Positions 43,712 through 64,000 of a DNA stretch of 64,000 bases are shown here, piece by piece; within the stretch, counting starts at the first letter, position 1, and each line of letters opens with the position of its first letter. The DNA is from Salibacter sp. GTDB taxonomy: Bacteria; Bacteroidota; Bacteroidia; Flavobacteriales_G; Salibacteraceae. The stretch covers positions 2,009 to 66,008 of the forward strand of contig NZ_JAVLBN010000003.1 in assembly GCF_031581065.1 (NCBI RefSeq). The letters are read 5' to 3'. Position numbers and translations under genes: made by a program. The notes under the pieces are model-generated. The model made no database searches. It was not told the DNA's origin and saw only the letters and a list, made by a program, of their open reading frames with translations.

Positions 43712-44614
43712 CTAAAAATTCATTTTTTTAACTTGATCACCCGCCTCATTAAAGTTTTTCCAAACTCCTTTTTCTCTATTGTTTTGATACTGGCCAATTT
43801 GTTTGATAGAGCCATTTGGATAATATTTTTTCCAAATTCCGGTTCTGTTATTGTTTAAGTATTGCCCAATTGTTTTTATATTCCCATTAGGATAAAACTC
43901 AATGTAGCTTCCGTTGGCTTCATTGTCTTTTAACTCGAGAATTGAAACAGTATTACCAGCTTTGTCATATGTATATTGAATAGGGTAAGGGGGGAGCGTT
44001 ATTTTTTTTCTCAAATCACCACTTTTGTAAAAGAACACTCTATCATCGGTTAGTTTACCGATTTTATAATGCTCTCTTTTTTTTACGAAACCATCATCGT
44101 CATAATATATCCAAACGCTGGTTTTTAGATTATTCTCGAAGGCACCTTTAATTACAGTATCTTTTTTATGATTGTACTTGACGTACTCACCATTTTTCAG
44201 GCCTTTGCTGTACTGTATGGTTTCGCTCAAAAAACCACTCTCGCTGTAAAGTTTTACTATCCCTTCAATTGTGTCATTTGTATAGTTTTGGGTTTGTTTC
44301 AAGAGTCCATTAGGGTAGTAATAATATTGAAGGCCATCTAGTTTTCCATATTTGTAATTTGCCTTTTGTTTAATTTGACCATTTTTATAATATACCTTCC
44401 ATTTGCCACATAAAAGCCCATCGCAATAAAACCCTTTTTGCCATATGTTGTTGTTGCTATATTTTATTTGGTAGAGTCCATTCTTGGTGCCGTTTTTAGT
44501 GTGATAAAACTCCTTTTCAATCCCATTTTTATAGTAGTTTTTTTTAGACTCTGACTGGCATTGAGCAGATCCTGTAAAGACCAATACAACAATAATTACT
44601 AAAATTGCTTTCAT
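43712..44614 (-). CDS. Secreted MORN-variant / YwqK-family repeat protein
   Basis: 300 aa with a signal peptide and many repeats of the type G.W..YY.NG.....G.Y..G...G.W. Its start overlaps the upstream stop (ATGA at 44611-44614). Confidence 0.7.
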   Translation of the reverse strand: MKAILVIIVVLVFTGSAQCQSESKKNYYKNGIEKEFYHTKNGTKNGLYQIKYSNNNIWQKGFYCDGLLCGKWKVYYKNGQIKQKANYKYGKLDGLQYYYYPNGLLKQTQNYTNDTIEGIVKLYSESGFLSETIQYSKGLKNGEYVKYNHKKDTVIKGAFENNLKTSVWIYYDDDGFVKKREHYKIGKLTDDRVFFYKSGDLRKKITLPPYPIQYTYDKAGNTVSILELKDNEANGSYIEFYPNGNIKTIGQYLNNNRTGIWKKYYPNGSIKQIGQYQNNREKGVWKNFNEAGDQVKKMNF

Positions 44615-45402
44615 CTTATCGTTATCGTTTTTCGCAAGGCTTCCAGGTCAAGACCAAAGCCAGGGTCAACAACGAATAGTATTTCATATGTGCCTTTGTC
44701 AAGGTCAGAGATATCATATGAAAGCCTTTTAATTTGTTTGGGGTAAACGGTTCTCTGCATCTTTTTTGATGATATATTCTCACCAGTTTTAGTGTTCACT
44801 GCAGAATAGTAATACTTAAACTTATGTATATAAGAGGGAGTGTTGTTTTTTATTTTAAGCGTACAAATATTTGAAGTTTTGTTATGAAAAAAGGAATCTT
44901 TAAGAAGTGAGAAGCTAATATTTTCTTTTTCTCCAGAGTCTTGAATTATCTTCACTGCTATTCTGGGGATTACTTTAATGCCGGTTTTAAGCTCATCTTT
45001 CATTCTTGTTCTAGCGTTTTCATCTACTACTGAAACAAATCCCGTAATCCATTTTGAGCCTTCTACATCTTTCGTATCTGGTTTCATTGTTATTTTGATC
45101 TCACCCTGTTCTTCAGGCCCAATTCTAACCTCTTTGTTATCGAGGGTTATCCATTTGAAGCAAGAGTTCTCAGTTGTTCCCGGACTCGTATATTTCTTTA
45201 CCCCGTCAATAAAATATTCATCAGAAAAAGTAAGCTTAAAGGTTTGAGGAGTGTCATTGTGGTTAGTTATTGTAATCGATGCTGCTTGAGGTTTTTCATA
45301 AGTTGCATTGAAGTATATAACAACAGGAGCTACTTCGAAATCCTGAGAGAAAGATTTTAAAGTTATAAGTAAAAATAAAACTCCGAAAATTGTTTTTTGC
45401 AT
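44611..45402 (-). CDS. Secreted two-Ig-domain protein, candidate PapD-like fibre chaperone
   Basis: 263 aa with a signal peptide. FEVAPVVIYFNATYEKPQAASITITNHNDTPQTFKLTF and RIGPEEQGEIKITM follow the strand pattern of pilus chaperone N-domains. This is a pattern-level inference only. Confidence 0.4.
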   Translation of the reverse strand: MQKTIFGVLFLLITLKSFSQDFEVAPVVIYFNATYEKPQAASITITNHNDTPQTFKLTFSDEYFIDGVKKYTSPGTTENSCFKWITLDNKEVRIGPEEQGEIKITMKPDTKDVEGSKWITGFVSVVDENARTRMKDELKTGIKVIPRIAVKIIQDSGEKENISFSLLKDSFFHNKTSNICTLKIKNNTPSYIHKFKYYYSAVNTKTGENISSKKMQRTVYPKQIKRLSYDISDLDKGTYEILFVVDPGFGLDLEALRKTITIR

Positions 45403-45435
45403 ATTGCGATTTATTAATTTCTAAATCAAATAAAC

Positions 45436-46059
45436 ATGAAAAGCGTTAAAATCCTCAAGTATTCATTATTATTGATAATTATTTCATGTTCTATTCCATC
45501 TTTCAGTCAGCCTGTTTCAGACAGAGCTGTAGTTCCTGTAGCCGTAACACTCAATCAGATACTTCGGTTAAATGTGACTGATGGGGGTAATATTGAGTTT
45601 GTGTTCAACCGAATAGACCAGTATCAAAACGGAATCCCTAATTCGGCTATTTACGATACTAGATTGACTGTAGCTTCATCAACTGCATGGGAGCTGAATA
45701 TGGGAGCTGAAGATGCTACTTTTATTGGTACAGATGACCCGTCAAATACTTTGGATTTAGATTATGTTGGTTTTCAGTTGACTGACGCGGGAAACCACAC
45801 TTTTGGGACTGAGTTTATCGATGCTGCCGGTGCAAATGCAGCTGCTGTTGGGCTTGCGACATACCCTGTTTCAGTTATTACAAGTGCTGCTGCGCCAAAC
45901 GGTAATGCAGGGGATATTACTGATAACATAATTGTTATAAATTGGGAGTGTAACACTACAGGTTTAAACACTACGACTGGAAATAATGCGCTTATTGATG
46001 AAACCATAAATCCAGATCGATACGTAACAAATGTTCTACTTGACGTAGAGCCAAATTAA
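45436..46059 (+). CDS. Secreted pilin-like subunit candidate A
   Basis: 207 aa. Signal peptide ending SFSQ, Ala/Thr/Asn-rich beta-rich body, and a C-terminal strand DRYVTNVLLDVEPN paralogous to the next gene. Confidence 0.45.
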   Translation: MKSVKILKYSLLLIIISCSIPSFSQPVSDRAVVPVAVTLNQILRLNVTDGGNIEFVFNRIDQYQNGIPNSAIYDTRLTVASSTAWELNMGAEDATFIGTDDPSNTLDLDYVGFQLTDAGNHTFGTEFIDAAGANAAAVGLATYPVSVITSAAAPNGNAGDITDNIIVINWECNTTGLNTTTGNNALIDETINPDRYVTNVLLDVEPN

Positions 46060-46063
46060 TCTA

Positions 46064-46618
46064 ATGAAGCTTAAAAGCTTTTTGATATCGATTTGTCTAG
46101 TTTTCATTTATTCGGTTTCTCACAGCCAGCCTTATAATACAGCAAGGTTGTCATTGATTCAATCACAGCAAGTAGAAGTTTATGTTAATTCATTCGATGA
46201 AATAGAAAACGGAATCACCGTTCCAGGTGGAACGGTGTTAGGGGTTACACTCCAGGACTTAAACGATCCTTCGGCTCCTGCCCCACTATCCGGTTTTGAA
46301 ATATTCGTAAGAACCAATAACGGTATTTCTTCAAACTTTGAAGGTATCAACGGGAATTCAATGGATCTTGACATACTATCTTTAACTAGTAGTAATAGAC
46401 AGGGTTTTGGATCGTCCACCTTTTTTTATGGGCCTTTAAGCCTTGATCAGATAAGCCAGTTGATTGTTGAGAGCACGTTAACTAATTGTGACTGGAGCAC
46501 TCATCAGATAAATGTTCAATATGAATTTGGCACAGCTAATTGCACCAGTAAATTCACAAGTTTCAAATCTGATTTTTATACAGTTGAAGTTGAATTTATA
46601 CTTGAACCGGTTTTTTGA
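46064..46618 (+). CDS. Secreted pilin-like subunit candidate B (paralogue of A)
   Basis: 184 aa. Signal peptide ending SHSQ and C-terminal strand DFYTVEVEFILEPVF. It ends in GTT TTT TGA. Confidence 0.45.
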   Translation: MKLKSFLISICLVFIYSVSHSQPYNTARLSLIQSQQVEVYVNSFDEIENGITVPGGTVLGVTLQDLNDPSAPAPLSGFEIFVRTNNGISSNFEGINGNSMDLDILSLTSSNRQGFGSSTFFYGPLSLDQISQLIVESTLTNCDWSTHQINVQYEFGTANCTSKFTSFKSDFYTVEVEFILEPVF

Positions 46619-49532
46619 TTATTTACTAAATCTTAAATCGCTTCTCATATGTTTAATTTTCATTGTGCCATCTATTATTTACTCTCAGGTAACAGAAGGG
46701 CCATCTATTGATACAACTGAGTTTTTCAAAAACCTAGATTCAACGAATAATTTATCTAATCCTGGCACAACGGATAGCCTAATTTATTTTTCATCATTTA
46801 AGACTTTTTTTGAGGGCGATAATGAGATTGTTTGGAAAAGCCTCAACATAAAATATAGAGCGCCTGACACCCGAGACTTCAAACTGAAATTGTTCTACTC
46901 TGATTTTTTTCAGCTATTATCAGCTAATAATGAATATGCTTTTAGCCAGGCCAAAGAGATAGACACAACCATTCTTTTACCATTTAGAGTAAAAGAAAAT
47001 TCAAGTCTTGAGGGAGGCACTACGACCAGCATAAGTGCTCAACTCCTTATCAATGAGCAGGAATTAGTTAAAGAGGCTATATCATTTCTCCATTATAAAA
47101 GAAAATCATCCTGGGACTTTAGTGCTGAGTTGAGTAATCCTTTGTGGTTGAAAAATGAAGCTGAAAAAAAAGTTTACGTTCGTGTATCGAACAAGAGCAA
47201 TTACACACAAACTTTTAATGTGAAGCTGAAGGCTCGAAGCACACAATCTTCTGAAGAAAAGATTTTTAAAATTAAGAAAAGAGCAGATACAGCTCTTGCC
47301 TTTAAAATCAAAAACCCTTCAACTAATTCTTTTGATGAAAACAGGATAACAATTGAGGTGGTTAATTCTGGTGAAACGAAGCGCCAAATTCTTTACACTC
47401 ATAATCCAGGTTCTAATTATGAAAATACCACTTACTTCACAGAAACACCAGCCAACCTGGAAGTTGGGGCTTTTAATTTTGGCTCTGGAGCCTCACCCAC
47501 ATACTCATTAAGAAGCTGGGGAGATATTCATTTTTCTTCCAATGAGAGGCTCCAGTATTCCTTCAACTTCTTCAATATTCTTTTTGACAGTCCTAATGTT
47601 GATCTTTGGAGATACAGTAGGCTCTCAATTATAGCTGATTTTCCAGGGTTAACCGTAAACGCAGGAGATCAAACTCTGGGGAACTTTTATCCAGAATGGG
47701 GAAGGGGCTTAAGCGCAACAAAAGTCTTCCAGGAATCAAATAATGAGGTTTCATTAGGTGCGGTAAATAACCTTTTTTTTGATAGAACAACATACAACGC
47801 CTCTGGGAAATTGCGTTTTGGTAATGTAGTATTAAGACCTTCATTTTCCAGGTCAACAGATGCTTCTAATCTGGTTCAAAAAATTGAAGGTAATATTTTT
47901 AGTGACTTCAGAATAAAAAAGCATTTAATATCAGCTGGTCTTTCTTTTTCACAAAGACAACACCTATATGATACGAATTCATTTAACACGCCATCACAGT
48001 TTTATCTTCCAGGCAGGACTCTAAATGGCTATGCTTATTCCCTAAGGTATGGGTTTTCAAATAAACTCTGGAGGATAAGACTAAAAACAAGAACCAAGTC
48101 AAAGTATCACGCAGGAGCATTTACCGGAACACAAAATCAAAGACTTCAAGTCACAAGAACGATCTCGCGAAAAAGCAGGGTCAGTGGTAGAGTTTCAAGA
48201 AGAAAGTTTGAGCCTTCTGAAACGTTTAGAGGGGTTTTGAGTAACCTGAACTATTACGATCTCACAAGAGCTATGCTCTTGTACCGAACCGAGATCTTAA
48301 AAACTAACCTTTCCTTTGGAACAAACTTTTTATATTCTGAAATAAGCAATAATTTAAATCAGTTAGATGGCACACCACTCGATTTAAATATTTATACCTC
48401 GCCAAGAATATATACGCGCTTATCTGGCAAAATTTCCTCTTATAGAATAAGCGCTCAGGCACAAGTTGGCCCAGTATATTTAAATCAAACCACACCAATT
48501 AACTTTTCCAATAATGCTTATCAAATTGGAGTAAATATCACTGATAACATTTCAAATATTTCATTGCGGTTTAATGATGGGTTAATTATACCCTCTGTTA
48601 CTGGTTTAAACTCATACACGCTCAATAACTCTCAAAGTTTTTTCTTGGCCTATCGTTACCGAAAAACACTTCTTGACCAAATGCTCGATCTCAACTTTAA
48701 CCTAAATTACAGTAATTACATAGAAGCACAAAGCACATTGGTTAGTGCATTTTTACAAAGTGACCTAAAGTTGAATCATGGCATTGAATTATCAGCATAT
48801 TTGAATTTTTCAACGGTAAATTATCAAAACCGTGAAACACAAACTCAATCACTTTTTACTAATGCAGGTTTTGCTCTGAGGAAAAAGTTTGACGTAAATC
48901 AGCCACAACTGAAGTATTTTGATTTGAGCTTTAATACTTTTTTTGACGAAAATGGTAACAATCAGCTCGACTCTACCGAGCTAAATATTCAAAATGTATT
49001 AGTGGAACTCGAAAACGTTATTGATGATAACCAGTCCGTTGAAAAGCGTTTACTTTCAAATGAAAGTGGAAAAGTGAATTTTAAGGACTTACCAGAAGGA
49101 AATTACACAGCTCATTTCACCCCCGTTGGAAAAAGCGAAATTAACCTTGGAGAAAAGGCTATATCATTCATGTTAAATAGTGATAAGACAGAAGATATTC
49201 CTTTATCTGAGGAATACAGCTTAAAGGGTCGGGTTATTTTTCAAAAAGCTAAGTTTTCTAGCGTTCAAAGTCTTGACTTTTCCAAAATTAAGTTAATAAT
49301 AAATGGACCCAGGGGTAAAGAAATCAAGACCTGGGCTTCTGATGATGGTCGTTTTAACTTTAACCTCAACAAAACCCCCGGGATTTATAAGCTATCAATT
49401 GACACTTCATTGTTACCTGATAACATTCTTGTAGAAAAACAATCTTATTATTTTGAAATGAATGGATTAAAAAGTTACTCAATTAACTTTAAGCTTTTTG
49501 AAAAAGAAAGGAAGTTAAATATAACAGAGTAG
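46512..49532 (+). CDS. Large (about 970-1006 aa) outer-membrane usher-like protein candidate; start uncertain
   Basis: A signal-like segment LKSLLICLIFIVPSIIYSQ begins right after the previous stop with no canonical start codon nearby. The nearest ATGs (46512, 46521) overlap the previous gene. The body has Ig-like N-terminal modules and a long amphipathic beta region containing LTVNAGDQTLGNFYPEWGRGLSATKVF. The C-terminal domain is SdrD-B/carboxypeptidase-regulatory-like (NGNNQLDSTELNIQNVLVEL...GKVNFKDLPEGNYTAHF). Confidence 0.45.
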   Translation: MFNMNLAQLIAPVNSQVSNLIFIQLKLNLYLNRFFDYLLNLKSLLICLIFIVPSIIYSQVTEGPSIDTTEFFKNLDSTNNLSNPGTTDSLIYFSSFKTFFEGDNEIVWKSLNIKYRAPDTRDFKLKLFYSDFFQLLSANNEYAFSQAKEIDTTILLPFRVKENSSLEGGTTTSISAQLLINEQELVKEAISFLHYKRKSSWDFSAELSNPLWLKNEAEKKVYVRVSNKSNYTQTFNVKLKARSTQSSEEKIFKIKKRADTALAFKIKNPSTNSFDENRITIEVVNSGETKRQILYTHNPGSNYENTTYFTETPANLEVGAFNFGSGASPTYSLRSWGDIHFSSNERLQYSFNFFNILFDSPNVDLWRYSRLSIIADFPGLTVNAGDQTLGNFYPEWGRGLSATKVFQESNNEVSLGAVNNLFFDRTTYNASGKLRFGNVVLRPSFSRSTDASNLVQKIEGNIFSDFRIKKHLISAGLSFSQRQHLYDTNSFNTPSQFYLPGRTLNGYAYSLRYGFSNKLWRIRLKTRTKSKYHAGAFTGTQNQRLQVTRTISRKSRVSGRVSRRKFEPSETFRGVLSNLNYYDLTRAMLLYRTEILKTNLSFGTNFLYSEISNNLNQLDGTPLDLNIYTSPRIYTRLSGKISSYRISAQAQVGPVYLNQTTPINFSNNAYQIGVNITDNISNISLRFNDGLIIPSVTGLNSYTLNNSQSFFLAYRYRKTLLDQMLDLNFNLNYSNYIEAQSTLVSAFLQSDLKLNHGIELSAYLNFSTVNYQNRETQTQSLFTNAGFALRKKFDVNQPQLKYFDLSFNTFFDENGNNQLDSTELNIQNVLVELENVIDDNQSVEKRLLSNESGKVNFKDLPEGNYTAHFTPVGKSEINLGEKAISFMLNSDKTEDIPLSEEYSLKGRVIFQKAKFSSVQSLDFSKIKLIINGPRGKEIKTWASDDGRFNFNLNKTPGIYKLSIDTSLLPDNILVEKQSYYFEMNGLKSYSINFKLFEKERKLNITE

Positions 49533-54104: not shown

Positions 54105-54673
54105 GATTTGGACTTTGCCCTAAAAATGCGAGCAAAGGTAAAATTTTGAATAGATTGCGCGGGTGTTAAAATGCATGTCCTTCGTGCAAGATGATATTAT
54201 CTTATCTGTGTTGCTCTATATTTTAAAGAAGTTAATCTTACAAATAATGCTTGTAAAATATTGCTCATGGGGAATTTAGTCTAAATGTGTTTTCACTGTG
54301 ATTAAATAATGAATTCATTATTATAAATTAGATTAGCAGGAGTTTATAAAAAACACATTCAACTAGTTGCTTTATTGATGCTTTAGGCTTTTGCAATGTA
54401 CTGCAAAAGCAACCTACAAGTGAATATCACCTTCTGTTAATATAAAAATGCAAATAGTTATCAATAATGTAAATTAAATCGATAATATACGTAAACATTT
54501 AGTGCTTATTTACACTCCTTAATGTTGTATGTATGTTACAGAAAGATTATCGGAAAAACGCAGATTATAAAAAAAAGGTAAAAATATTGTAAAAAAACAT
54601 ATTAGGTGCTTTTGATTTAATAATTGTATGATCTTGTTTAATCTAAAACATGATGTCTCATACACATCAAAAG

Positions 54674-54707
54674 CCTTACAAAACGTTAAATACGTTTTGT
54701 AAGGTTT
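54674..54707 (+). terminator. Orphan hairpin with U-rich tail in the ORF-free leader
   Basis: 12-bp perfect stem CCTTACAAAACG / CGTTTTGTAAGG with a 7-nt loop, followed by TTTATTT. Confidence 0.4.
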
Positions 54708-54760
54708 ATTTAAACAAATAGGTATTTTTAAGATTACACTCAAGATCGAGCACTTTCTTT

Positions 54761-54828
54761 AAGGTTTAGTTTATGTTTGATCAAGATTGTTAGGTTAGAC
54801 AGCCTCACAGAGTGGGGCTGTTTTTTTT
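54761..54828 (+). repeat. Copy A of a conserved motif-plus-terminator element (AAGGTTTAGTTTA..TTGTTAGGT..hairpin..T8)
   Basis: It shares AAGGTTTAGTTTA (54761-54773), TTGTTAGGT (54787-54795) and a terminator hairpin with the element directly after the adhesin gene at 58141-58212. Confidence 0.7.
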
Positions 54829-55482
54829 GAATGGTTTGTTATCAACCGCTCAATATTTGTTCTTTCTACTCTTTAATCAAATCCAAAAATCAATACGCTC
54901 TATTTTTTTAGGCCCTTTTATAAAATTTTGCTTTGAACGTCACTAAAACAGAATATTCATTTCATTTATGGATACTTCCTTTAAAAGTCACCTGAGCAAA
55001 TTCTATTTTTAAAGCCCGCTTAATCTGCTTGGCTTTTTTCTCAATATTCTAAAGTGCCTCAACCAATTAACCTTTCTGACTTTAATGTTATGAATAGTGT
55101 CAAGATCTGTTCTGTTAAGCACTATTTAGGGTATGTATTGCTGGAACTCTAACTTTTTCAGTTTGAGTTTTTAAAATAAACGTTTTGAAAAAAATTTTGC
55201 TGCCTACGTATTAGAAGAGCTTTATTGATCGATTAGGTGGAAATTTCCTTATTTTCATTAAAGGTGTAATCCCTTGTTCAATAGTTTTATGCTTTCCTCT
55301 TAGTTCGTATTATAACCATTAAAGTTAATTACCTCAAATAATGCCATGCGTGCTATTCAAAAATAGCAAATATAATTTAAAAAAAAGTACTTAAAAAAGC
55401 AAAAAACAGATCATTTCTATCACTTTTTATCACATCTCACATAACAACAACTAAATTCAATATAAGGCCTTAGAGATAGTGG

Positions 55483-55490
55483 TATTTTTG
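55483..55490 (+). promoter_or_regulatory. Candidate -7 box (TAnnTTTG) for the adhesin gene
   Basis: TATTTTTG lies 24 nt upstream of the ATG at 55514. There is no clear -33 element. Confidence 0.3.
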
Positions 55491-55513
55491 TAAAAATTTT
55501 AAAAAAAATTGTC

Positions 55514-58135
55514 ATGAACAACATTAGATTTCTGCTTTTAGCATCCTTAATTTTTATGTCTGCAAACCAAGTGTTTTCTCACTCTGTACAAACATTTTGG
55601 GAAGAAAGGAATAATGGATCTATTCGATTTTGGTTAGAGCATTGGCATGGTCAACCATCCCAAGGTTCACTTTCAAATTTCTACATAGTTGTTGATCAAG
55701 GGTCAGGCAATCAAAATGTCACAGCTACTGGAGCAGTGAACAACACCTCTTTCAGTAATTTACCTGTTCAAGGATCCGTACAAAACCGATCAACCTGTTA
55801 CGCAGCAAATAGTTACAATAACTGGGTTTATTACGATTTTTATCCAGCTTCGTGTAACCAATCTTTGACAATTACATTTGTTGATGGCCCACCTGCTGAG
55901 ACAACACCAGCTTGTAATGGACTTTTTGGTTTCTCAGTAACTAAAACCTTCAATGATAATGCTGCGCCAACTATTGTTGCCAATGATTTAAATGTGAGTA
56001 CATCATCAACGAATTGCTCTTATGTAGCGGGGTCGTTTTCAAATGTTACTGTAACAGATAATTGTGATTCAAATCCTAATGTTTCTTACAGTATTAACAA
56101 TCAGTCAATTAACCCTTCAACTTACCAATTTCCTGTAGGCTCAACAACAGTTGATGTAACAGCATCTGATAATACAGGTGTACCAACTAATAACACTTCA
56201 ACATCATCTTTTAACGTTGTAGTTTCAGACAATATTAGTCCTACCGTCCAGGCGCAAAACATAACTATACAACTCGATTCCAATGGACAGGCTACAATTT
56301 CCACATCAGATGTCGAAAATGGGTCATCCGATAATTGTACAACTCCTACATTAAGTTTAGATAAAACAACTTTTGATTGCAATGATCTAGGTGCAAATAC
56401 GGTTACACTTTCTGCAGATGATGGGAATGGGAATATTTCAGCTGTTTCAGCAACTGTTACAGTATCAGATAGTATAGCACCATCAGCAATTTCTCAGGAT
56501 ATTACAGTATATCTCGATGCAAATGGCCAGGCAAGTATAACAACCAATGATATCGATAACGGATCAAGTGACAATTGCTCGATAAGTAGTATGACACTTG
56601 ACCAAACGAGTTTCACTTGTGCGGATACCGGTCAAAATACGGTTACTTTAACCGTAACAGACGGCAGCAACAATGTGTCAACATCTTCAGCTGTTGTAAC
56701 AGTTGAAGACACAATAGCGCCCAATATCCAAACTCAAAGTGTAACAGTTTACCTCGACAGTTTAGGTCAGGCAAGTACAACAGCTATGAGTATAGATGCT
56801 GGCAGCAGTGATAATTGTGCTATTGACACCATGTTCTTAAGTGAAAGTAACTTTGATTGTTCACACATCGGCACAAACACGGTACAGTTGATTGCTACTG
56901 ATGTTAATGGTAATACTGATTCATCAAGTGCTATTGTAACAGTTGAAGATACTATTGCTCCTGAGGTAATAACTCAGGGTGTAACCCTTTATCTGGATAG
57001 TACAGGAACGGCAGTACTAACGCCATCGGTATTTGATAATGGTTCTAATGATAATTGTTCAATAGACAGTATGAGCTTGAGTCAGGATACATTCACATGC
57101 TCTGATTTAGGCTTACATGTTGTTGATTTACATGCAACAGATCAGAGTGGTAACGGTGCAACATCAAATGCTCTTGTTTCTGTTACAGACACCATAGCTC
57201 CCCTGTTGAGATCTTTCTCCAACATAACAGTTTATCTTGACAGCTCTGGCACTGCCTCAATTGATGCGGGCATGCTCGATAGTAACTCAGTAGATAACTG
57301 TAATTTAGATACTATTTATCTATCTCGTACAACGTTGGCATGTGCTGACCTTGGAAGCACAACAGTAGAGTTAATTGGAAAAGATAGATCGATGAACGAA
57401 TCGCGATTACTGGTAAACATAACTGTAGAGGACACACTTGCTCCTTCGATTGAGTGTCCATCGAGCTTTGATGCATGTGCCGGTATAGTGGACTTCCCAG
57501 ATGCTGTCAGCAACGATAACTGTACCAGTACAGTAACTAATACAGGGAATGTTTTTTCAGGAGACAGTTTAACAGAAGGTGAATATGTAACATCATTTGA
57601 GGCTGTTGATGAAGCGGGCAATGTGGCTAGTTGTACAACAAGTTTTAGTGTCAATGCTATTCCAGAAGTGGATCTTGGAGCAGACACAGCAGTTGGCCCA
57701 GGTCATGTTGTGAGTTTTTCAGTAAATGATACAGTCAGCGAATACCTTTGGAGTACAGGAGATACAACCAGATCTCTTGATCTAAAAGTATTGACAGACA
57801 CAACCGTTTGGATTAGTGTAACTGACAGTAATAGCTGTACAGGATCAGATACAGCAACTGTTACCATTCTCACAGGTATAAAGGGATCTGAAAAAACTCT
57901 TAATGTGAGTGCTTATCCAAACCCAACCAGAGGTGAAGTAAAAGTTGAATTGCTTGGGGTAGAAAATTTGAATTACCATTTAATAGATATGGCAGGAAGA
58001 ATACTCCAAAGCGGTAATATGCAATCGGGTTTAAACCGATTAGATATAAGCAGATATGCAACATCAGTTTATTATCTTCAGCTTCAAAATGAACAAGGAG
58101 AAGGTATAAAGGTTATACGATTGGTTAAGCAATAA
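55514..58135 (+). CDS. Multi-domain cell-surface adhesin-like protein with T9SS C-terminal sorting domain
   Basis: 873 aa. The signal peptide is predicted to be cut ...NQVFS|HSVQ. It has a novel N-terminal domain of about 130 aa, five 80-aa Ig/HYR-like repeats (TV.DTIAP....Q..TVYLD..G.A......D.GS.DNC.I), one HYR-like module, one module shared with the protein at 1-1572, and a CTD (AYPNPTRGEVKVEL...VYYLQLQ). Confidence 0.85.
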   Translation: MNNIRFLLLASLIFMSANQVFSHSVQTFWEERNNGSIRFWLEHWHGQPSQGSLSNFYIVVDQGSGNQNVTATGAVNNTSFSNLPVQGSVQNRSTCYAANSYNNWVYYDFYPASCNQSLTITFVDGPPAETTPACNGLFGFSVTKTFNDNAAPTIVANDLNVSTSSTNCSYVAGSFSNVTVTDNCDSNPNVSYSINNQSINPSTYQFPVGSTTVDVTASDNTGVPTNNTSTSSFNVVVSDNISPTVQAQNITIQLDSNGQATISTSDVENGSSDNCTTPTLSLDKTTFDCNDLGANTVTLSADDGNGNISAVSATVTVSDSIAPSAISQDITVYLDANGQASITTNDIDNGSSDNCSISSMTLDQTSFTCADTGQNTVTLTVTDGSNNVSTSSAVVTVEDTIAPNIQTQSVTVYLDSLGQASTTAMSIDAGSSDNCAIDTMFLSESNFDCSHIGTNTVQLIATDVNGNTDSSSAIVTVEDTIAPEVITQGVTLYLDSTGTAVLTPSVFDNGSNDNCSIDSMSLSQDTFTCSDLGLHVVDLHATDQSGNGATSNALVSVTDTIAPLLRSFSNITVYLDSSGTASIDAGMLDSNSVDNCNLDTIYLSRTTLACADLGSTTVELIGKDRSMNESRLLVNITVEDTLAPSIECPSSFDACAGIVDFPDAVSNDNCTSTVTNTGNVFSGDSLTEGEYVTSFEAVDEAGNVASCTTSFSVNAIPEVDLGADTAVGPGHVVSFSVNDTVSEYLWSTGDTTRSLDLKVLTDTTVWISVTDSNSCTGSDTATVTILTGIKGSEKTLNVSAYPNPTRGEVKVELLGVENLNYHLIDMAGRILQSGNMQSGLNRLDISRYATSVYYLQLQNEQGEGIKVIRLVKQ
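56228..57430 (+). repeat. In-frame 240-nt tandem coding repeats (five units)
   Basis: The GA(C/T)..AT(T/A)(A/G)..CC unit starts at 56228, 56468, 56708, 56948 and 57188 are each 240 nt apart. The next unit starts at 57431. Confidence 0.8.
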
Positions 58136-58140
58136 TTTCC

Positions 58141-58212
58141 AAGGTTTAGTTTAGTTTAACCATGTTTGTTAGGTATAGCAGGCTTGATTTATTTCAAGCC
58201 TGCTTTTTTTTT
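58141..58212 (+). repeat. Copy B of the conserved motif-plus-terminator element, 5 nt after the adhesin stop
   Basis: AAGGTTTAGTTTA (58141-58153), TTGTTAGGT (58166-58174), stem GCAGGCTTGA / TCAAGCCTGC (58178-58203), then T9. Confidence 0.75.
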
Positions 58213-58305
58213 AACTCAGAAGCAATATCCAGTTAATCCAACATCCAGCTAAGTAAAAATCATTCATTTGTTATAAATTCGCCAACTTAAGAATTAATTG
58301 ACAAT

Positions 58306-60375
58306 TTGAAATTTAAGCTAAGCAAAATAAAGCCTCAGGATACTGAGTTTTACGAAATATTATTCAACTATTTCGAAAATCAAGACAATGAGGTGTTTTG
58401 TTTTTTAGCCTTTGATTTAGAAGAATATGTGTTTTCAAACAAAATCAAAAGTCATCTAAATCTAGACAATGAGCAAGTCAAAGCTATACTAAATCAAGGT
58501 ATTGACCCGGTTTATGAGGGTTACGTAGAGAGTCTTGGTAAATTCGGCATTGGAGAAAGAAGGAGATTTCTTCGAGTAGATTTAAATTTGAATCAAGAAA
58601 CTAAACCATTTGTTACAACAAAATTAGTTGACTTTACCCCTATTGGCCTAGATTTTATTTTATTCGTTCTGTTCCCTTCAAAATTGTTCTCACCTAAGAA
58701 AATTAATGAGAATATAATAAAGTTTATATACGAACCCTCTCACTCTGTAGGCTTATTGAATAATGATACAATCACCCTTTCAAACTCAACGAGTTTGAAG
58801 CTTGAAAATGTTAAAGTAAAGACCCAGACAGAGTATAAAGGAAGAAAAATAATCTTTTTTCAAAACCCGAATTCAAACTACCTCAATGAGCTTATTAAAG
58901 ATTTTAGTGAAGTCCTAAAAAGTAGGGACGAACAAATTCATTACAGAGAGTTACTGACAGAGTCTATCTTCTCAGGTTATTGGGATTGGAACATCAAAAC
59001 AAATTATGAGTATCTCAGCCCACAATTCAAAGCTATGTTTGGGTATGATGTTGATGAAATGGAACATTCTCCAGAGTCATGGCAAAAGATCGCTTACAAA
59101 GAAGACTTACCTAAACTATTCGCAGAATTTGAAAAACATGTAGGTTCTAGAGGAGCCAAGCCGTTTTCCTCAATTACAAGATTTTATCATAAAGAAGGAC
59201 ATACTAAATACGTTTTATGTAGCGGGAGGGTTGTTGAGTGGGATGAGGACTGGAAACCAAAAAGAGCAATTGGTACCCATGTCGATTTGACCGAGCAATT
59301 TGAAACTAGAAAAAAACTAGATCAAAAAACAGAGGAAGCGCATAATATTTTTAGTTTTTCAAACTCATTGTTCTTTTTGATTGATAAGGAAGGAGAGATA
59401 GTTTGGAACTCACCTAATATCAAGGAGAAGCTCAAAACTTCTAAAGGTGACTTAACCGGAAAGTCTGTTTTAACACTACTAAATCGAAAATCAGACACAA
59501 TAAGCTCCTTTTTAGAAGATAAAATTGAAATTAAATCTGCACAAAATGAAAGGTGGTATGAAGTCTTTGCAACTGAAATTAGGCAGCACCTAGAAAATGA
59601 GAATGTTGATAGTGCAAAATATTTTTTTCAACTCCAGGATATTACTGAAAGAAAAAAAGCTGAAGAAATTTACAAGAAAAATTTAGAAAAGGAAGAGAAA
59701 ATTATTGAGCAGCAAAAAGTTTTTCTTTCTGCGAGTTCTCATATTTTGAGAACTCCACTTTCTGTAATTAACACCAATATAGAGATTATAAAAGAAAAAC
59801 TTAAAGCTTTAGAACTATCTAATAAGTTCTCTAACATAGAGGTTATTCAAAATCAAGTTAAAAAGATCAATGGTCTGATCTCTGATATGACAGAATATAC
59901 CAATGTTAAAGAAAGAGAAAAGTCAAAAGTTAACGGAGAAGAGTTAATCGACTTAATAGTTGAAGAAGCTAGAGATCATGAAATAGGTTTCTCTGTAGAA
60001 ACAAGGACATCTTTGAAAAATTACTATACTAAGTCAAATAAAGTTAACCTGGCAAACCTATTAAACACTTATTTTACTTTAATAAATGTAGGCGGAGAGC
60101 AAAATCATTCATGTGAAATATACAGGTCAGGAAATGAGTTGTGTGTTGTTTCCCGTGGTGGTTTAATTGAAGGGTTTCACAACATTGTTAAAAAACACTT
60201 TAGTGACGATAGTACTTTTGATATAGATCATATGTCTAGTAAAATAATAGAGTTACAGTTTAAATTTGAATTTTTTATAGAATTGGTCAATATTGAGCTA
60301 TTAAAATTCAATTTTAAAGAGGCTGACGATAACACAATCTCTTATAAATTAGCATTTAATCTATATGAAAACTAG
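58306..60375 (+). CDS. PAS-domain signalling protein with a HisKA-type phosphoacceptor (DHp) region but no recognisable ATPase domain
   Basis: 689 aa with a TTG start in the track. PAS region (IFSGYWDWNIKTNYEYLSPQFKAMFGY...), H-box SASSHILRTPLSVI. The last 190 aa or so lack N, G1 and G2 boxes (no DxGxG, no GxGLG). Confidence 0.65.
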   Translation: MKFKLSKIKPQDTEFYEILFNYFENQDNEVFCFLAFDLEEYVFSNKIKSHLNLDNEQVKAILNQGIDPVYEGYVESLGKFGIGERRRFLRVDLNLNQETKPFVTTKLVDFTPIGLDFILFVLFPSKLFSPKKINENIIKFIYEPSHSVGLLNNDTITLSNSTSLKLENVKVKTQTEYKGRKIIFFQNPNSNYLNELIKDFSEVLKSRDEQIHYRELLTESIFSGYWDWNIKTNYEYLSPQFKAMFGYDVDEMEHSPESWQKIAYKEDLPKLFAEFEKHVGSRGAKPFSSITRFYHKEGHTKYVLCSGRVVEWDEDWKPKRAIGTHVDLTEQFETRKKLDQKTEEAHNIFSFSNSLFFLIDKEGEIVWNSPNIKEKLKTSKGDLTGKSVLTLLNRKSDTISSFLEDKIEIKSAQNERWYEVFATEIRQHLENENVDSAKYFFQLQDITERKKAEEIYKKNLEKEEKIIEQQKVFLSASSHILRTPLSVINTNIEIIKEKLKALELSNKFSNIEVIQNQVKKINGLISDMTEYTNVKEREKSKVNGEELIDLIVEEARDHEIGFSVETRTSLKNYYTKSNKVNLANLLNTYFTLINVGGEQNHSCEIYRSGNELCVVSRGGLIEGFHNIVKKHFSDDSTFDIDHMSSKIIELQFKFEFFIELVNIELLKFNFKEADDNTISYKLAFNLYEN

Positions 60376-61402
60376 AAATATTTTAGTTGTAGAAGACGAA
60401 CTGGATCTTTTAAACTCTATTAGAGATATATTAGAACTCAAAGGTTATCACGTATTTGACTTTTCAAACCCACAAAGTGCTCTAAATTATATCAACGAAA
60501 ACAAAAATCAAATTGATCTCATTTTAAGTGATATAATGATGCCTGAAATGAGTGGTTTTGAATTTTTGAGAGAAATAAGATCTAATTCTGAGCTCGATCT
60601 TATTCCATTTGTTTTCCTAACTGCTAAAATTAAAGAGGACGATGTAAGGTACGGCTTTGCCCTGGGTGCTGATGATTACTTAAAAAAACCATTCGAGATT
60701 TCCATTTTATCAAATTCTATTTCTGCACAGCTAAAGAAAAGAGATTCTTTTTTAGCGCTACTTGAGGAGAATAGTAAAAAAGTAAAAGTAGCTACAAACA
60801 CATTTGATCAATTGTCCTTTTTTAACAGTCATCTTTTACGTGCACCTTTAGCTAATATTTCAACTATTTTAGAAGAAAAGAACTCTTTAAACGAAGAAGA
60901 AACACAGTACATTAAAGGACAAGCAAAGAGAATTGACAGGGCTGTCATGTTATTGACCTCTAAAATGAGCAGGTTCAAAGGTGAAATGGATTACCAGGTC
61001 AAAAAATTACCTGACTTCAACTTACTTGAGGAAGTAGTTTTTGTAGACGATGACAACTTCCAGTTACAACATATTAAAATGTTGTTTGAAAGGTTTTTTC
61101 CTCACATAAAACTCAGTAGTTTTTCAAACCCTCTTGAAGTGATCAACATTAAAGATGAACCCCAATTGCTAATTACAGATATTAACATGCCTGAAATGTC
61201 AGGTTTTGAGCTTTTAGAGACCCTTTCTTCCAAGGGATTTCATCCACCTACAGTAATACTTACAAGCAGTATTGACTTAAATGATTTGGAAAAAGCTATG
61301 TCATTTGAGAATGTTTTTCAATTCTTAAGAAAACCATTTACGCCTACTGATTTTGAAAAGGCTTTTATCAATAATAAAGGTGAGCCAGGAAGCATCTCAT
61401 AA
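60365..61402 (+). CDS. Dual receiver protein: REC - DHp-like H-box segment - REC
   Basis: 345 aa. REC1 has VVEDE...LILSDIMMPEMSG...DYLKKPF, the central segment has NSHLLRAPLANI, and REC2 has VFVDDD...LLITDINMPEMSG...FLRKPF. It overlaps the upstream gene by 11 nt. Confidence 0.7.
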   Translation: MKTRNILVVEDELDLLNSIRDILELKGYHVFDFSNPQSALNYINENKNQIDLILSDIMMPEMSGFEFLREIRSNSELDLIPFVFLTAKIKEDDVRYGFALGADDYLKKPFEISILSNSISAQLKKRDSFLALLEENSKKVKVATNTFDQLSFFNSHLLRAPLANISTILEEKNSLNEEETQYIKGQAKRIDRAVMLLTSKMSRFKGEMDYQVKKLPDFNLLEEVVFVDDDNFQLQHIKMLFERFFPHIKLSSFSNPLEVINIKDEPQLLITDINMPEMSGFELLETLSSKGFHPPTVILTSSIDLNDLEKAMSFENVFQFLRKPFTPTDFEKAFINNKGEPGSIS

Positions 61403-61405
61403 AGA

Positions 61406-63601
61406 CTATCTATCTTTAAAGACTACAAAGGATGAGGTACCCTTGTTAACATTTGATTCTATCATAATTCCAGCATCTTGCATGTTAGCTGCTTTTTTAC
61501 AGATCAAAAGCCCTAATCCGGTACCTTCATAATTTTTCGTGTTAGACCCTCTAAAAAAAGGTTTAAAAAGTGAAGCTTTATCTTTTTCGGGTATTCCTAT
61601 TCCATTATCTGTAACACTTAATTTGATGAATTTCTCTTCTTTTTTGCAGTTTATTTTAACTTCACCTGTGGAATATTTTAACGAGTTGTCAATGAAGTTT
61701 GTAAGGATTGTGGTTGTTAAATCAATATCCATTCTAACTTTTACATCAATACATAAGTCGAACTTGAGGCGCTTAAACTGATCCTCGTTGTTGTGATAAT
61801 AACTCTTTAGTGATTGCTCTAATTTTTTTAATGGAATTTTTTTCAAATGTGAAGCTCTGAAGTTATCGCTGTCCAACTTACTATTCTCTAAAAGGTTGGC
61901 AATTATGTCGAGAAGTTTATTCAGCTGTTTTTTTATTCGTAAAAAGTATTTGCTTTTGTCAATGTTTTTGAAAGATGAATTGAGTAATTCAAGGTTCGTT
62001 AAGATAGTTGAAATAGGGGTTTTAAGCTGATGACTTCCCATATCAATTATGGACTTCTCTAAATTGATTAACTCTTGTGATTTACGAAGCACCTCCACTT
62101 TTTCTTTTTCGAGTTCTCTTCTCTTCGAGATGTCCCTGGATGTTGAAACTATTTCGATTAGCCTCCCATCTTCATATATTCCTTTAGCATTAGTTTCAAG
62201 AATTATTTTATCACCATTTTTTCTAAACATTTCAATCTCACCTTCATAATGCGTGATCTCTTTATTTATCAATTTGACTAGTAAAGAATCTAATACTTCT
62301 CTTTTTTGTGTCGAAGTGGTCATTTCAAATGGATTTTTACCAATCAGCTCTTCCGGTTCATAACCTAGTACATTTTTGACTGATGCTCCAATAAACTTTA
62401 TCTTTACATTCGGTTTATGTATACATATAATATCAGAATTATATTTAGAAATAGAGTTCAATAATTTTGATTGATAATCTTTTTCTCTATTAAGCTTGAA
62501 CTCTTTAGTGATATCAATAAGTATGATCTCAAAGCTATTACCAGTTTTAGATTCAAACTTGTCTGCATATACTTGTAGCCATTTGTTGTCAGTTTTTGAT
62601 TTGGCTTTGAATTTAATTCTTTCGTGATGAGAGTTATTTTCAAAGAATTTGCAAATCTTATCCTTATCAAAGTCTGTTATTAAATCCTTTAACTTGCCTC
62701 CTTCAAGTTCAGAATTATTTAGAATTTTATAAGCTCCTCTGTTGGCATAGTTGATTGTACAGTTTTTATCTAATTGAAGAAGCCCAACTGATGTAGTTTC
62801 GATTAATCTTTGATATTTCTTACGGAGATTTTCTTCTCTTTCTTTAGAGTTTCTCAACTCAGTTACATTTTCAGAAACTGCAAAAATCATTCTTTCACCC
62901 CGGAAATTGAAAGGCGATTTAGTTGTGCGGTATATGCGATTTTCTCCCTTGTAGGTGGTGAAATCCTCATACTTGGTTAACGACTTATTTTTGTTCAGAA
63001 CCTCTCTTTCAAAGCTATCAAATTGATCCAGTTCACTTTTAACTTTATGAACTTCACTGTTATTGAAATTTTCTATTTCTTCTTTATCTTTTCCAAACAG
63101 ATCAGCAACAGCTTGATTTACTTTTATAAAGTCACCATTTGAATTCTTGACAAAAATCAAAGATGGACTTAGATCAAAAATGTTGTTTAAAAATTGAGCA
63201 GTTTCCCTCTGCAGTTTATAATTTCTGTGTTCCTCATCAACGTTTCTCATTAAGCCAACGACATATACAGGCTTATTATTCTCGAATTTTGCCTTACCCT
63301 GGTGTTCAGTATAAATGATGGTTCCATCTTTTTTGACCATCCTGTATATTGTCTTCTCAAAATAATCTGTATGTTTTTTTAAATGCTCATTGACGGGCTT
63401 TAAGGCTTTTTCTAAATCTTCAGGTAGAACATGTGATTCGTATGTCTTAAAAGTAGTATCGAGCTCTGAGGAATCCTCATATCCCAGTAGTTGACCCCAG
63501 CTCTTAGAATAATAAACTGTGTCTGTACACAAATCCCACTTCCATATTCCAATATTTTGTTTTTCAGTTAGCAGATCAAACAATTCTTTTTCGTAAAGCA
63601 T
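61406..63601 (-). CDS. Multi-PAS sensor histidine kinase (complete HisKA + HATPase_c)
   Basis: 731 aa with about four PAS modules. H-box GSHQLKTPISTI, N box NFIDNSLKYS, G1 TDNGIGIP, G2 GTGLGLLICKK. Confidence 0.85.
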   Translation of the reverse strand: MLYEKELFDLLTEKQNIGIWKWDLCTDTVYYSKSWGQLLGYEDSSELDTTFKTYESHVLPEDLEKALKPVNEHLKKHTDYFEKTIYRMVKKDGTIIYTEHQGKAKFENNKPVYVVGLMRNVDEEHRNYKLQRETAQFLNNIFDLSPSLIFVKNSNGDFIKVNQAVADLFGKDKEEIENFNNSEVHKVKSELDQFDSFEREVLNKNKSLTKYEDFTTYKGENRIYRTTKSPFNFRGERMIFAVSENVTELRNSKEREENLRKKYQRLIETTSVGLLQLDKNCTINYANRGAYKILNNSELEGGKLKDLITDFDKDKICKFFENNSHHERIKFKAKSKTDNKWLQVYADKFESKTGNSFEIILIDITKEFKLNREKDYQSKLLNSISKYNSDIICIHKPNVKIKFIGASVKNVLGYEPEELIGKNPFEMTTSTQKREVLDSLLVKLINKEITHYEGEIEMFRKNGDKIILETNAKGIYEDGRLIEIVSTSRDISKRRELEKEKVEVLRKSQELINLEKSIIDMGSHQLKTPISTILTNLELLNSSFKNIDKSKYFLRIKKQLNKLLDIIANLLENSKLDSDNFRASHLKKIPLKKLEQSLKSYYHNNEDQFKRLKFDLCIDVKVRMDIDLTTTILTNFIDNSLKYSTGEVKINCKKEEKFIKLSVTDNGIGIPEKDKASLFKPFFRGSNTKNYEGTGLGLLICKKAANMQDAGIMIESNVNKGTSSFVVFKDR

Positions 63602-63607
63602 ATTAAA

Positions 63608-64000
63608 TCAATTTTTTTGGCTAAACTTCTTCGGTGAAACTCTGTATTTGTCCTTAAAGCACTTTGAAAAATAAGATAGCGAGTTATACCCTACCATTGA
63701 GCTTATTTCTGAAATAGTGTTTGAATTCTGCTTAATCAAATGTGCAGCTCTCTCCAATTTAAAATTGTTTATAAACTCAGAGTAGTTTTGACCTGTTACG
63801 CGTTTAATTTTTTTCTGAACAGCTGAAGGGCTCAGATTTAGTAAGTTCGCCATTTTTTCCAATCCAAAGTCAGAGTCACCACTATGCTTTTGCACTTGAT
63901 TTTTAACTTCTTCAAGAAATGAGATGTCCTTATCTTTATGGTATTCGTGATCAGGAGTTTGAATTATCTTTTTTATTTGACCCCTTTTTCTTTCTATGAT
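63608..64000 (-). CDS. AraC-family HTH domain protein; N-terminus lies beyond the window end
   Basis: The frame is open to base 64000, and the track start at 63895 is an internal GTG. The C-terminal HTH_18-like region is LEKMANLLNLSPSAVQKKIKRVTGQNYSEFINNFKLERAAHLI...GYNSLSYFSKCFKDKY. Confidence 0.75.
   Translation of the reverse strand: MIERKRGQIKKIIQTPDHEYHKDKDISFLEEVKNQVQKHSGDSDFGLEKMANLLNLSPSAVQKKIKRVTGQNYSEFINNFKLERAAHLIKQNSNTISEISSMVGYNSLSYFSKCFKDKYRVSPKKFSQKN

Follow-up and report, generated by a model that had tools for sequence, protein, structure and literature searches.

Chaperone-usher pili such as Fim, Pap, Csu and CFA/I are assembled from the products of single loci, which comprise a periplasmic chaperone made of two immunoglobulin-like (Ig-like) domains, a large outer-membrane barrel, the usher, bearing N-terminal and two C-terminal sandwich domains, and small subunits with an N-terminal donor strand, besides subunits lacking this strand, like the tip adhesins. 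To our knowledge, assembly of this type has not been described in Bacteroidota to date, the known filaments of this phylum being type V pili and adhesins of the type IX secretion system (T9SS). In a 64,000-nucleotide stretch of DNA from Salibacter sp. (positions 2,009 to 66,008 of contig NZ_JAVLBN010000003.1; hereafter the window), a cluster of five genes at positions 43712-49532 was found to encode putative counterparts of these components, and it most likely represents a sequence-unrelated form of chaperone-usher-type fibre assembly, related to the gene cluster of the TLP-1 fibrils.

These fibrils, TLP-1a/b (PDB 9IKJ/9IKK), were obtained in 2024 by the CryoSeek approach from filtered water of the Tsinghua Lotus Pond and solved by cryo-electron microscopy at 3.2-3.5 Å as 8-nm helical tubules, in which the N-terminal strand beta1 of protomer n+4 fills the beta2/beta7 cleft of protomer n and thereby completes its Ig-like fold (PMC11494351). 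The authors found no TLP-1 sequence in their own metagenome or proteome and could assign neither a source organism nor a function, the best structural relative being a protein of Flavobacteriales with less than 40% identity; they suggested that the fibrils are uncategorised bacterial pili (PMC11494351). The searchable literature yielded no paper that ties a gene cluster, chaperone or usher to TLP-1 or to its reference protein A0A2M8AA21.

The five open reading frames (ORFs) of the Salibacter cluster encode five secreted proteins, all five with an N-terminal signal peptide, in two divergent units (Table 1). The leftward unit begins with the gene of a two-Ig chaperone-like protein, which shares a 4-nucleotide ATGA overlap, suggestive of translational coupling, with the gene of a MORN-repeat protein. 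The rightward unit encodes two small proteins, termed here subA and subB, and a large usher-like protein. The ORFs, the overlap and the short divergent spacer are all present as outlined in a preliminary description of this DNA, and the paralogy which it proposed for the 207- and 184-residue small proteins is borne out over their full length by hhalign (probability 98.1%, E 8e-14).

The link between this cluster and TLP-1 goes through subA. Against the PDB, a profile of the subA family gave a weak match over residues 28-87 to chains named TLP-2 and TLP-1 (9IKK, E 0.12; 9IKJ, E 0.35). Since an E-value of about 0.1 proves nothing, the link was tested independently via a metagenome scan with 60 aligned TLP residues, which yielded 44 loci with 57-75% identity to this fragment. 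Full-length proteins from such TLP-type loci match TLP-1a/b end to end, with 50-56% identity and E-values of ~1e-80 (BLAST) and 8e-79 (phmmer). Their genes are arranged in the order chaperone, TLP, subB-like, barrel: upstream of the TLP-like gene lies a homologue of the chaperone-like gene (E 1e-16 to 1e-42, positions 27-267/268 of the hidden Markov model (HMM) in complete ORFs), and the barrel homologue is matched with E 1e-40 to 1e-65 (HMM positions ~17-995/1008). The window-type and TLP-type clusters therefore have three or four homologous components in common. In the same line, hhalign relates the subA family to the TLP-1-like family with a probability of 98.4% (E 5e-15), and still with 96.1% (E 3.6e-9, 38% identity over 58 columns) when the signal peptides are removed, the alignment opening at the donor strand (DRxVIPVAVNLNQVLR in subA, DEkNVTVTMDLQPILQ in the TLP-like proteins). 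A single freshwater subA (locus L030) searched against the PDB did not find TLP-1.

Judged from these alignments, the subA of the window is a distant and shorter homologue of the TLP-1 protomer (183 versus ~235 mature residues, with ~37% identity over 59 residues), related to it over the donor strand and the strands that follow. Residue 2 of the TLP-1 chain aligns with residue 24 of the precursors, immediately after a family-invariant Gln23, and residue 1 of the chain is, on this alignment, probably that Gln23. An N-terminal Gln after signal-peptidase cleavage is a habit of Bacteroidota, with which such a first residue would fit. Two TLP-like relatives, 39-41% identical to TLP-1, are named as Bacteroidetes/Bacteroidales metagenome-assembled genomes (MAGs), and T9SS sorting domains occur in the neighbours of loci L060 and L066, which are among those closest to TLP-1. 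The two clades also differ: in the TLP-type one, the chaperone gene precedes the TLP-like gene on the same strand and the MORN gene is absent from all loci, whereas in the window-type one, known from its genes, the chaperone gene is divergent and accompanied by the MORN gene. The MORN-repeat protein is thus an accessory of the window-type clade only.

With respect to the surroundings of the TLP-type loci, a protein of 1660-1760 residues with P_proprotein and Por_Secre_tail domains is encoded directly upstream of the chaperone-like gene in two of them (L060:64-5346 and L066:1064-6061), and a four-domain FKBP isomerase together with a WG-repeat protein follows the barrel gene in one (L060:13073-15788). 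In both cases, these neighbours could be accessories or a coincidence.

The preliminary description had left it to other genomes to tell whether the genes of the cluster belong together, and there they co-occur, with the same order and orientation among window-type loci. Word-indexed searches were nearly blind to this family: they returned three relatives of the chaperone-like protein, among which two contigs, L001 (28% identity) and L002 (48%), show the same divergent layout, and with the barrel protein, alone or as a two-sequence profile, they returned only the protein itself. The family was reached through an exhaustive search of representatives and DNA-pattern scans. The exhaustive search with the large protein gave 259 representatives at E<=1e-3, of which some hundred are full-length, and the subA alignment, scanned against one genome per species, gave 47 loci, all in Bacteroidota MAGs (Salibacteraceae, Crocinitomicaceae, Vicingaceae, Cryomorphaceae, "Bacteroidales" and GWA2_31_9). 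By HMM mapping, every window-type locus that is long enough has the MORN and chaperone-like genes on one side, reading away from subA, subB and the barrel gene in this order, except L047, which has no separate subB, and L008, which has no MORN gene within 7 kb; the MORN gene adjoins the chaperone-like gene in 43 loci and subB follows subA in 41. Altogether, the core genes co-occur in roughly 90 loci of the two clades, with frequent gene overlaps, which is far beyond chance. All named members of these families are annotated as hypothetical proteins.

Two of the window-type loci have particular surroundings. In L035 (7741-13790), the MORN-chaperone-subA-subB segment is present twice in tandem with identical proteins, an arrangement that probably arose as an artefact of assembly or through a very recent duplication. 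In L001 (699-4787 and 12963-16395), the fibre cluster is followed by a 1362-residue PKD/CHU_C (T9SS-type) protein and bordered on its other side by two CsgG-family proteins and one TPR-SpoIIE protein, an arrangement that is not kept in other loci.

The 982-residue product of the last gene was modelled by AlphaFold2 (AF2) on a 71-sequence alignment, with a mean predicted local distance difference test (pLDDT) of 87.4 and a predicted template modelling (pTM) score of 0.68, as a putative barrel preceded and followed by beta-sandwiches. When this model was compared to the PDB with Foldseek, FimD ranked at the top (3e-11 to 1e-9), closely followed by PapC (ushers ranging to 1e-6), and SlpA, BtuB, MtrB, LptD and porins appeared lower; the template modelling (TM) scores are low (0.2-0.3), as one expects where multi-domain proteins differ in strand number. 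This agrees with the usher-sized barrel that had been proposed from the sequence. In addition, the connections between the predicted strands alternate, every second one having at most 5 residues and the others up to 10-18, as in outer-membrane barrels. The amphipathicity of the putative barrel strands did not differ from that of the soluble sandwich strands, so that only this alternation of loop lengths is informative. The barrel profile gave nothing useful against PDB sequences.

The sole Pfam match above threshold in this protein is an SdrD_B/CarboxypepD_reg domain at residues 786-850 (810-873 on the 1006-residue ORF), which is the C-terminal domain guessed in the preliminary description. 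As this match is generic and BtuB, porins and LptD are among the folds, one may wonder whether the neighbourhood is an unrelated one, in which the large protein would serve in nutrient uptake or as a structural component of the outer membrane and carry CarboxypepD_reg-like domains, while the small secreted proteins would have nothing to do with it. We hold this to be very improbable: the order of the four core genes is kept across two deeply diverged clades with frequent overlaps, no family of TonB-dependent receptors or plugs is matched, the CarboxypepD_reg-like domains are C-terminal, and ushers outrank the other barrels.

As regards the start of the large ORF, ATG 46512 (1006 residues, the mechanical ORF), TTG 46584 (982 residues) and TTG 46602 are all possible, and TTG 46584 is the start given by NCBI for an identical protein (hypothetical protein RI557_01480 of the MAG "Salibacter sp.", 982 residues). 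Many homologues are larger, with 1160-1190 residues (for instance L001:4922-8407, L060:9551-13066 and L088:9400-12960), owing to an extra C-terminal extension of ~180 residues which has no Pfam family and is missing from the window protein.

The 263-residue protein of the leftward unit, with a signal peptide at residues 1-19, was predicted by AF2 on a four-sequence alignment to consist of two beta-sandwich (Ig-like) domains (pLDDT 80, pTM 0.71). With Foldseek, its model retrieved from the PDB first the WxLIP protein of Enterococcus faecium (9i25 and 9i1y, E 3e-12) and next the pilus chaperones CupB2, CsuC, CfaA, EcpB, Caf1M, YadV, PapD and FimC (1e-9 to 1e-6). WxLIP is itself predicted to complete the sandwich of its WxL partner by a donated strand (PMC10599100). 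The two groups of matches thus suggest one and the same kind of activity for the 263-residue protein. At the level of Pfam, sub-threshold matches to Ig-like families were obtained in the chaperone-like family, to Cep192_D6 in 47 of 47 members, to WxLIP_PGBD in 29 of the 47 and also to fn3_5. In the window protein, its N-terminal half gave sub-threshold matches only, to Cep192_D6, fn3_5, Motile_Sperm, ASH and WxLIP_PGBD, several of which we take to be members of the PapD-like clan. A search of PDB sequences with the chaperone-like profile gave nothing useful.

The first rank of WxLIP raises the alternative of a non-filamentous surface complex of the WxL/WxLIP type, in which the two-Ig protein would be a permanent partner of subA and subB, the barrel an anchor or export pore, and no polymer would be formed. 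Besides the structure of WxLIP bound to a WxL protein, its predicted donation of a strand and the WxLIP_PGBD matches, this alternative can draw on a loose parallel in gene content, WxL clusters of Firmicutes also combining two small proteins, a large one and a two-Ig protein. The Firmicutes system, on the other hand, is Gram-positive and peptidoglycan-associated, has no outer-membrane barrel and no known polymer, and its WxLIP (DUF916 and DUF3324) carries a C-terminal transmembrane helix that is near-universal in this family, whereas the 263-residue protein has no C-terminal hydrophobic helix and ends as a beta-strand at residue 263. Moreover, no WxL Pfam match occurs in subA or subB, in 48 subA or in 30 TLP-like proteins, the TLP-like profile misses the WxL chain in the PDB, and the N-terminal donor strand of subA is strongly conserved and homologous to the polymerising strand of TLP-1, whose close relatives have the same gene neighbours. 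We therefore regard a non-polymerising complex as improbable.

The two subunits are exported proteins whose signal peptides end in ...SFS/Q and ...SHS/Q, the slash marking the cleavage site; in subA, the signal peptide covers residues 1-24 and the mature protein starts at Q25. Within the subA family, conservation is highest in the N-terminal strand, and the C-terminal strand of the window protein reads PDRYVTNVLLDVEP. Type V pili (FimA/Mfa) would be the obvious comparison, since they too are surface fibres of Bacteroidota polymerised by strand exchange. Type V pilins are made as lipoprotein precursors, mature by proteolysis and need neither a chaperone nor an usher-like barrel. The subunits of the window, by contrast, lack a lipobox Cys where the signal peptide is cleaved, and they match no FimA/Mfa family. 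More generally, Pfam and NCBIfam hold no family for subA or subB, and Pfam gave no match in 48 subA relatives, be it to Fimbrial, SCPU, DUF4402, WxL or FimA/Mfa. The resemblance of their terminal strands to Csu, spore-coat-U or DUF4402-type subunits, pointed out in the preliminary description, is not borne out, the subunits belonging to the TLP-1 fibril family.

The two paralogues differ in that subB is devoid of the ~13-residue N-terminal donor strand of subA: the gap in their alignment falls exactly over DRxVIPVAVNLNQ of subA, and residue 5 of mature subB is aligned with residue 18 of mature subA. A subunit with the ability to accept but not to donate a strand could only be placed at the distal, first-assembled end of a fibre, which is the position held by the tip adhesins of the Fim and Pap pili. 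As judged from this alignment, subB is probably a tip or cap subunit that would start or cap the fibre. Against PDB sequences, subB gave chance matches to Sm proteins only.

From these data, we think it likely that the cluster serves to assemble an extracellular fibre in the manner of a chaperone-usher system, with polymerisation by donor-strand exchange. According to this model, and as can be read from their signal peptides of the signal-peptidase-I type, all components would be exported by Sec. In the periplasm, the fold of the two-Ig protein and its gene linkage suggest that it would bind the strand-lacking sandwiches of subA and subB and thereby block their polymerisation. The 982-residue protein would form a large outer-membrane barrel, as its predicted fold indicates, with its N- and C-terminal sandwiches presumably facing the periplasm, where they would receive the chaperone-subunit complexes, and the subunits would leave the cell through the barrel. 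There, the N-terminal strand DRAVVPVAVTLN of an incoming subA would displace the chaperone and complete the fold of the previous subunit, a step for which the experimental evidence comes from the homologous TLP-1a/b. Finally, subB, with a presumed acceptor fold and no donor strand, would sit at the distal end. In its working, the cluster would resemble a chaperone-usher pathway, but by sequence it falls outside the PapD, Usher and Fimbrial families. The demonstrated part of the case consists of the linkage of the genes, the folds as predicted and the homology of subA to a fibre protein with donor-strand exchange.

Several observations weigh against this proposal, starting with the lack of a sequence-level relation to any component of chaperone-usher systems (Pfam and NCBIfam negative, hhalign below 1%). 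Neither the window protein nor any of the 47 members of the chaperone-like family matches PapD_N or PapD_C in Pfam, and hhalign gave this family a probability of 0.4% against FimC, SfmC and YehC of Escherichia coli (all E. coli proteins being taken from MG1655). Of the PapD-like chaperone initially proposed, the two-Ig fold thus stands, with pilus chaperones among its best PDB matches, and membership of the PapD sequence families does not. The TM-scores of these Foldseek matches are low too (0.2-0.5), meaning that they reflect domain folds and overall architecture. Likewise, 40 members of the barrel family have no Pfam match to Usher, PapC_N or PapC_C, nor to families of TonB-dependent receptors or plugs, and hhalign gave a probability of 0.1% against FimD, SfmD and YehB. 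The resemblance of a segment of the large protein to an 'LxLGD...fRG' block of ushers, put forward in the preliminary description, accordingly finds no statistical support (below 1% against FimD-type profiles). Structurally, barrel closure and strand number are read from predicted secondary structure and Foldseek matches. The prediction gives ~26 strands compared to the 24 of ushers, and no insertion of ~80 residues, such as the plug between barrel strands 6 and 7 of ushers, shows in it, the longest connection having 18 residues. The two Ig-like N-terminal domains are unlike the usher N-terminal domain, and the C-terminal ones are prealbumin/SdrD_B-like. Concerning the subunit, whose fold would be that of the TLP-1 family and not of Fimbrial or SCPU, the match to TLP-1 is limited to the ~60 N-terminal mature residues, and the C-terminal half of subA alone does not detect TLP-1. 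Lastly, the window-type system is, in terms of data, known solely from its genes and predicted folds.

Another difficulty comes from the fibre itself. While donation goes from n+1 in chaperone-usher pili, it goes from n+4 in the related TLP-1 (PMC11494351), so that the TLP-1 fibre holds four donor-strand-linked chains, which is hard to reconcile with a single usher adding one subunit at a time. In addition, donor-strand fibres without chaperone or usher exist, as exemplified by TasA (8AUR, PMC11494351) and archaeal cannulae (PMC12518558). These arguments would fit a self-assembling fibre with a passive pore, in which subA would polymerise outside the cell, the barrel would be a channel or anchor comparable to CsgG of curli, and the two-Ig protein would act as a holdase or a minor part of the fibre; a four-chain n+4 fibril is more readily explained by lateral self-assembly, and neither a plug nor an usher-type N-terminal domain is recognised in the barrel model. 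Chaperone-free fibres such as TasA of Bacillus, archaeal bundling pili and cannulae do rely on donor-strand complementation of an Ig-like or jelly-roll subunit, but a dedicated two-Ig partner and a gene for an outer-membrane barrel are absent from them, and they show no sequence match to the window proteins. What makes spontaneous assembly doubtful, in our view to the extent of being unlikely, is that the top folds of the barrel protein are ushers with the same domain order (periplasmic domains, barrel, two C-terminal sandwiches), that strict gene linkage ties the two-Ig protein to the subunits and the barrel in both clades, and that, in a diderm, a subunit with an incomplete Ig fold must cross the periplasm unpolymerised.

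Going further than the chaperone-usher-like assembly line, one can propose that a third diderm donor-strand pilus pathway, confined to Bacteroidota and standing behind TLP-1-class fibrils, operates, next to classical chaperone-usher and type V pili, with a WxLIP/PapD-like two-Ig chaperone and a plug-less usher analogue of ~26 strands that is unrelated in sequence to known ushers; to this broader statement we would give an even chance.

Table 1. Features of the putative fibre-assembly cluster, in window positions.
Feature	Nucleotides	Length or residues	Strand	Basis or remark
MORN_2 (YwqK-like) repeat protein, secreted	43712-44614	300 aa	-	Pfam MORN_2 1.8e-21
Two-Ig chaperone-like protein	44611-45402	263 aa	-	ORF and AF2 fold
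Chaperone-like protein, predicted domain 1	45324-45025	27-126	-	AF2
Chaperone-like protein, conserved linker/strand TGIxVxPRIxV		140-150	-	Family conservation
Chaperone-like protein, predicted domain 2	44961-44617	148-262	-	AF2
Spacer between divergent start codons	45403-45435	33 nt		Sequence
subA, putative major fibre subunit	45436-46059	207 aa	+	Profile match to TLP-1a/b
subA, putative donor-strand region DRAVVPVAVTLN	45520-45555	29-40	+	Homology to TLP-1
subB, putative tip/cap (first-incorporated) subunit	46064-46618	184 aa	+	Paralogue of subA
Usher-like putative outer-membrane protein	46584-49532	982 aa	+	Start TTG 46584, 35-nt overlap with subB
Usher-like protein, signal peptide		1-34	+	Sequence
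Usher-like protein, two predicted N-terminal Ig-like domains	46776-47423	65-280	+	AF2
Usher-like protein, ~26 predicted long antiparallel strands	47451-48890	290-769	+	AF2
Usher-like protein, two predicted C-terminal beta-sandwich domains	48915-49502	778-887 and 903-973	+	AF2

The spacer between the two units is so short that the promoters of both must overlap neighbouring coding sequence. A scan for sigma-70-type promoters found 17 compared to 19.6 in shuffled sequences, promoters of Bacteroidota being outside the scope of the tool. Terminator-like hairpins are more frequent than expected (12 versus 4.2), yet neither end of the cluster has one.

The cluster had also been suspected of being an acquired block, on the grounds of its AT-richness and the absence of a frequent word. 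Both observations hold: the cluster has a GC content of 0.351, compared to 0.410 for the remainder of the window, and the most over-represented 9-mer of the window, GGTTCTGAC, which mostly has a C after it (20 copies on both strands versus ~0.5 expected), is found at sites spanning 3121-53985 (for example 3121, 4256, 6128, 8815, 36559, 42036 and 53310), without conserved flanks, but neither between 42037 and 53309 nor in the AT-rich region at 54-64 kb. However, as only ~1.8 sites are expected in 5.8 kb, their absence is not significant alone. In the relatives, the GC content of the cluster is lower than that of its flanks by only 0-4 points, and since ordinary genes occur in the even lower-GC 54-64 kb region, low GC is not special to the fibre cluster. 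The genes flanking it in the window (glmS, lspA, dksA-like and ileS) adjoin it in none of the other loci, which fits mobility or rearrangement and proves neither. The identity of the subunits is highest in Salibacteraceae MAGs (62-76%); most loci of Crocinitomicaceae and Bacteroidales show 40-47%, and some of Vicingaceae and unclassified Flavobacteriales reach 62-64% as well. The case for horizontal acquisition of the cluster is thus a weak one: it is possible, and not demonstrated.

As to the composition of the window itself, its most AT-rich part is located at 54105-64000 (GC 0.30-0.33); it begins with an ORF-poor gap (54105-55513), after which come the genes of a T9SS substrate containing HYR and Por_Secre_tail domains (55514-58135) and of a group of PAS histidine kinases and response regulators (58306-63601). 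The word GGTTCTGAC behaves like a genome-wide short signature, such as an uptake sequence or a Chi-like word.

Taken together, these data provide TLP-1 with a likely source phylum, the Bacteroidota, and with closer sequences than those at hand before, now 50-56% identical compared to less than 40% for the best match of the CryoSeek study. The conserved four-gene core, with its chaperone-like protein and its usher-like barrel, is a candidate for the machine that assembles TLP-1, and the cluster of the window belongs to a marine sister clade of the TLP-1 type. If the pathway of TLP-1-class fibrils is indeed of this kind, its machinery would assemble four donor-strand-linked chains into one tubule, and we know of no usher that does so. 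Since the fold is found without detectable sequence in common with the Pap, Fim and Csu systems, the cluster would have either branched off extremely early or been invented independently, and in both cases it bears on the evolution of donor-strand assembly.

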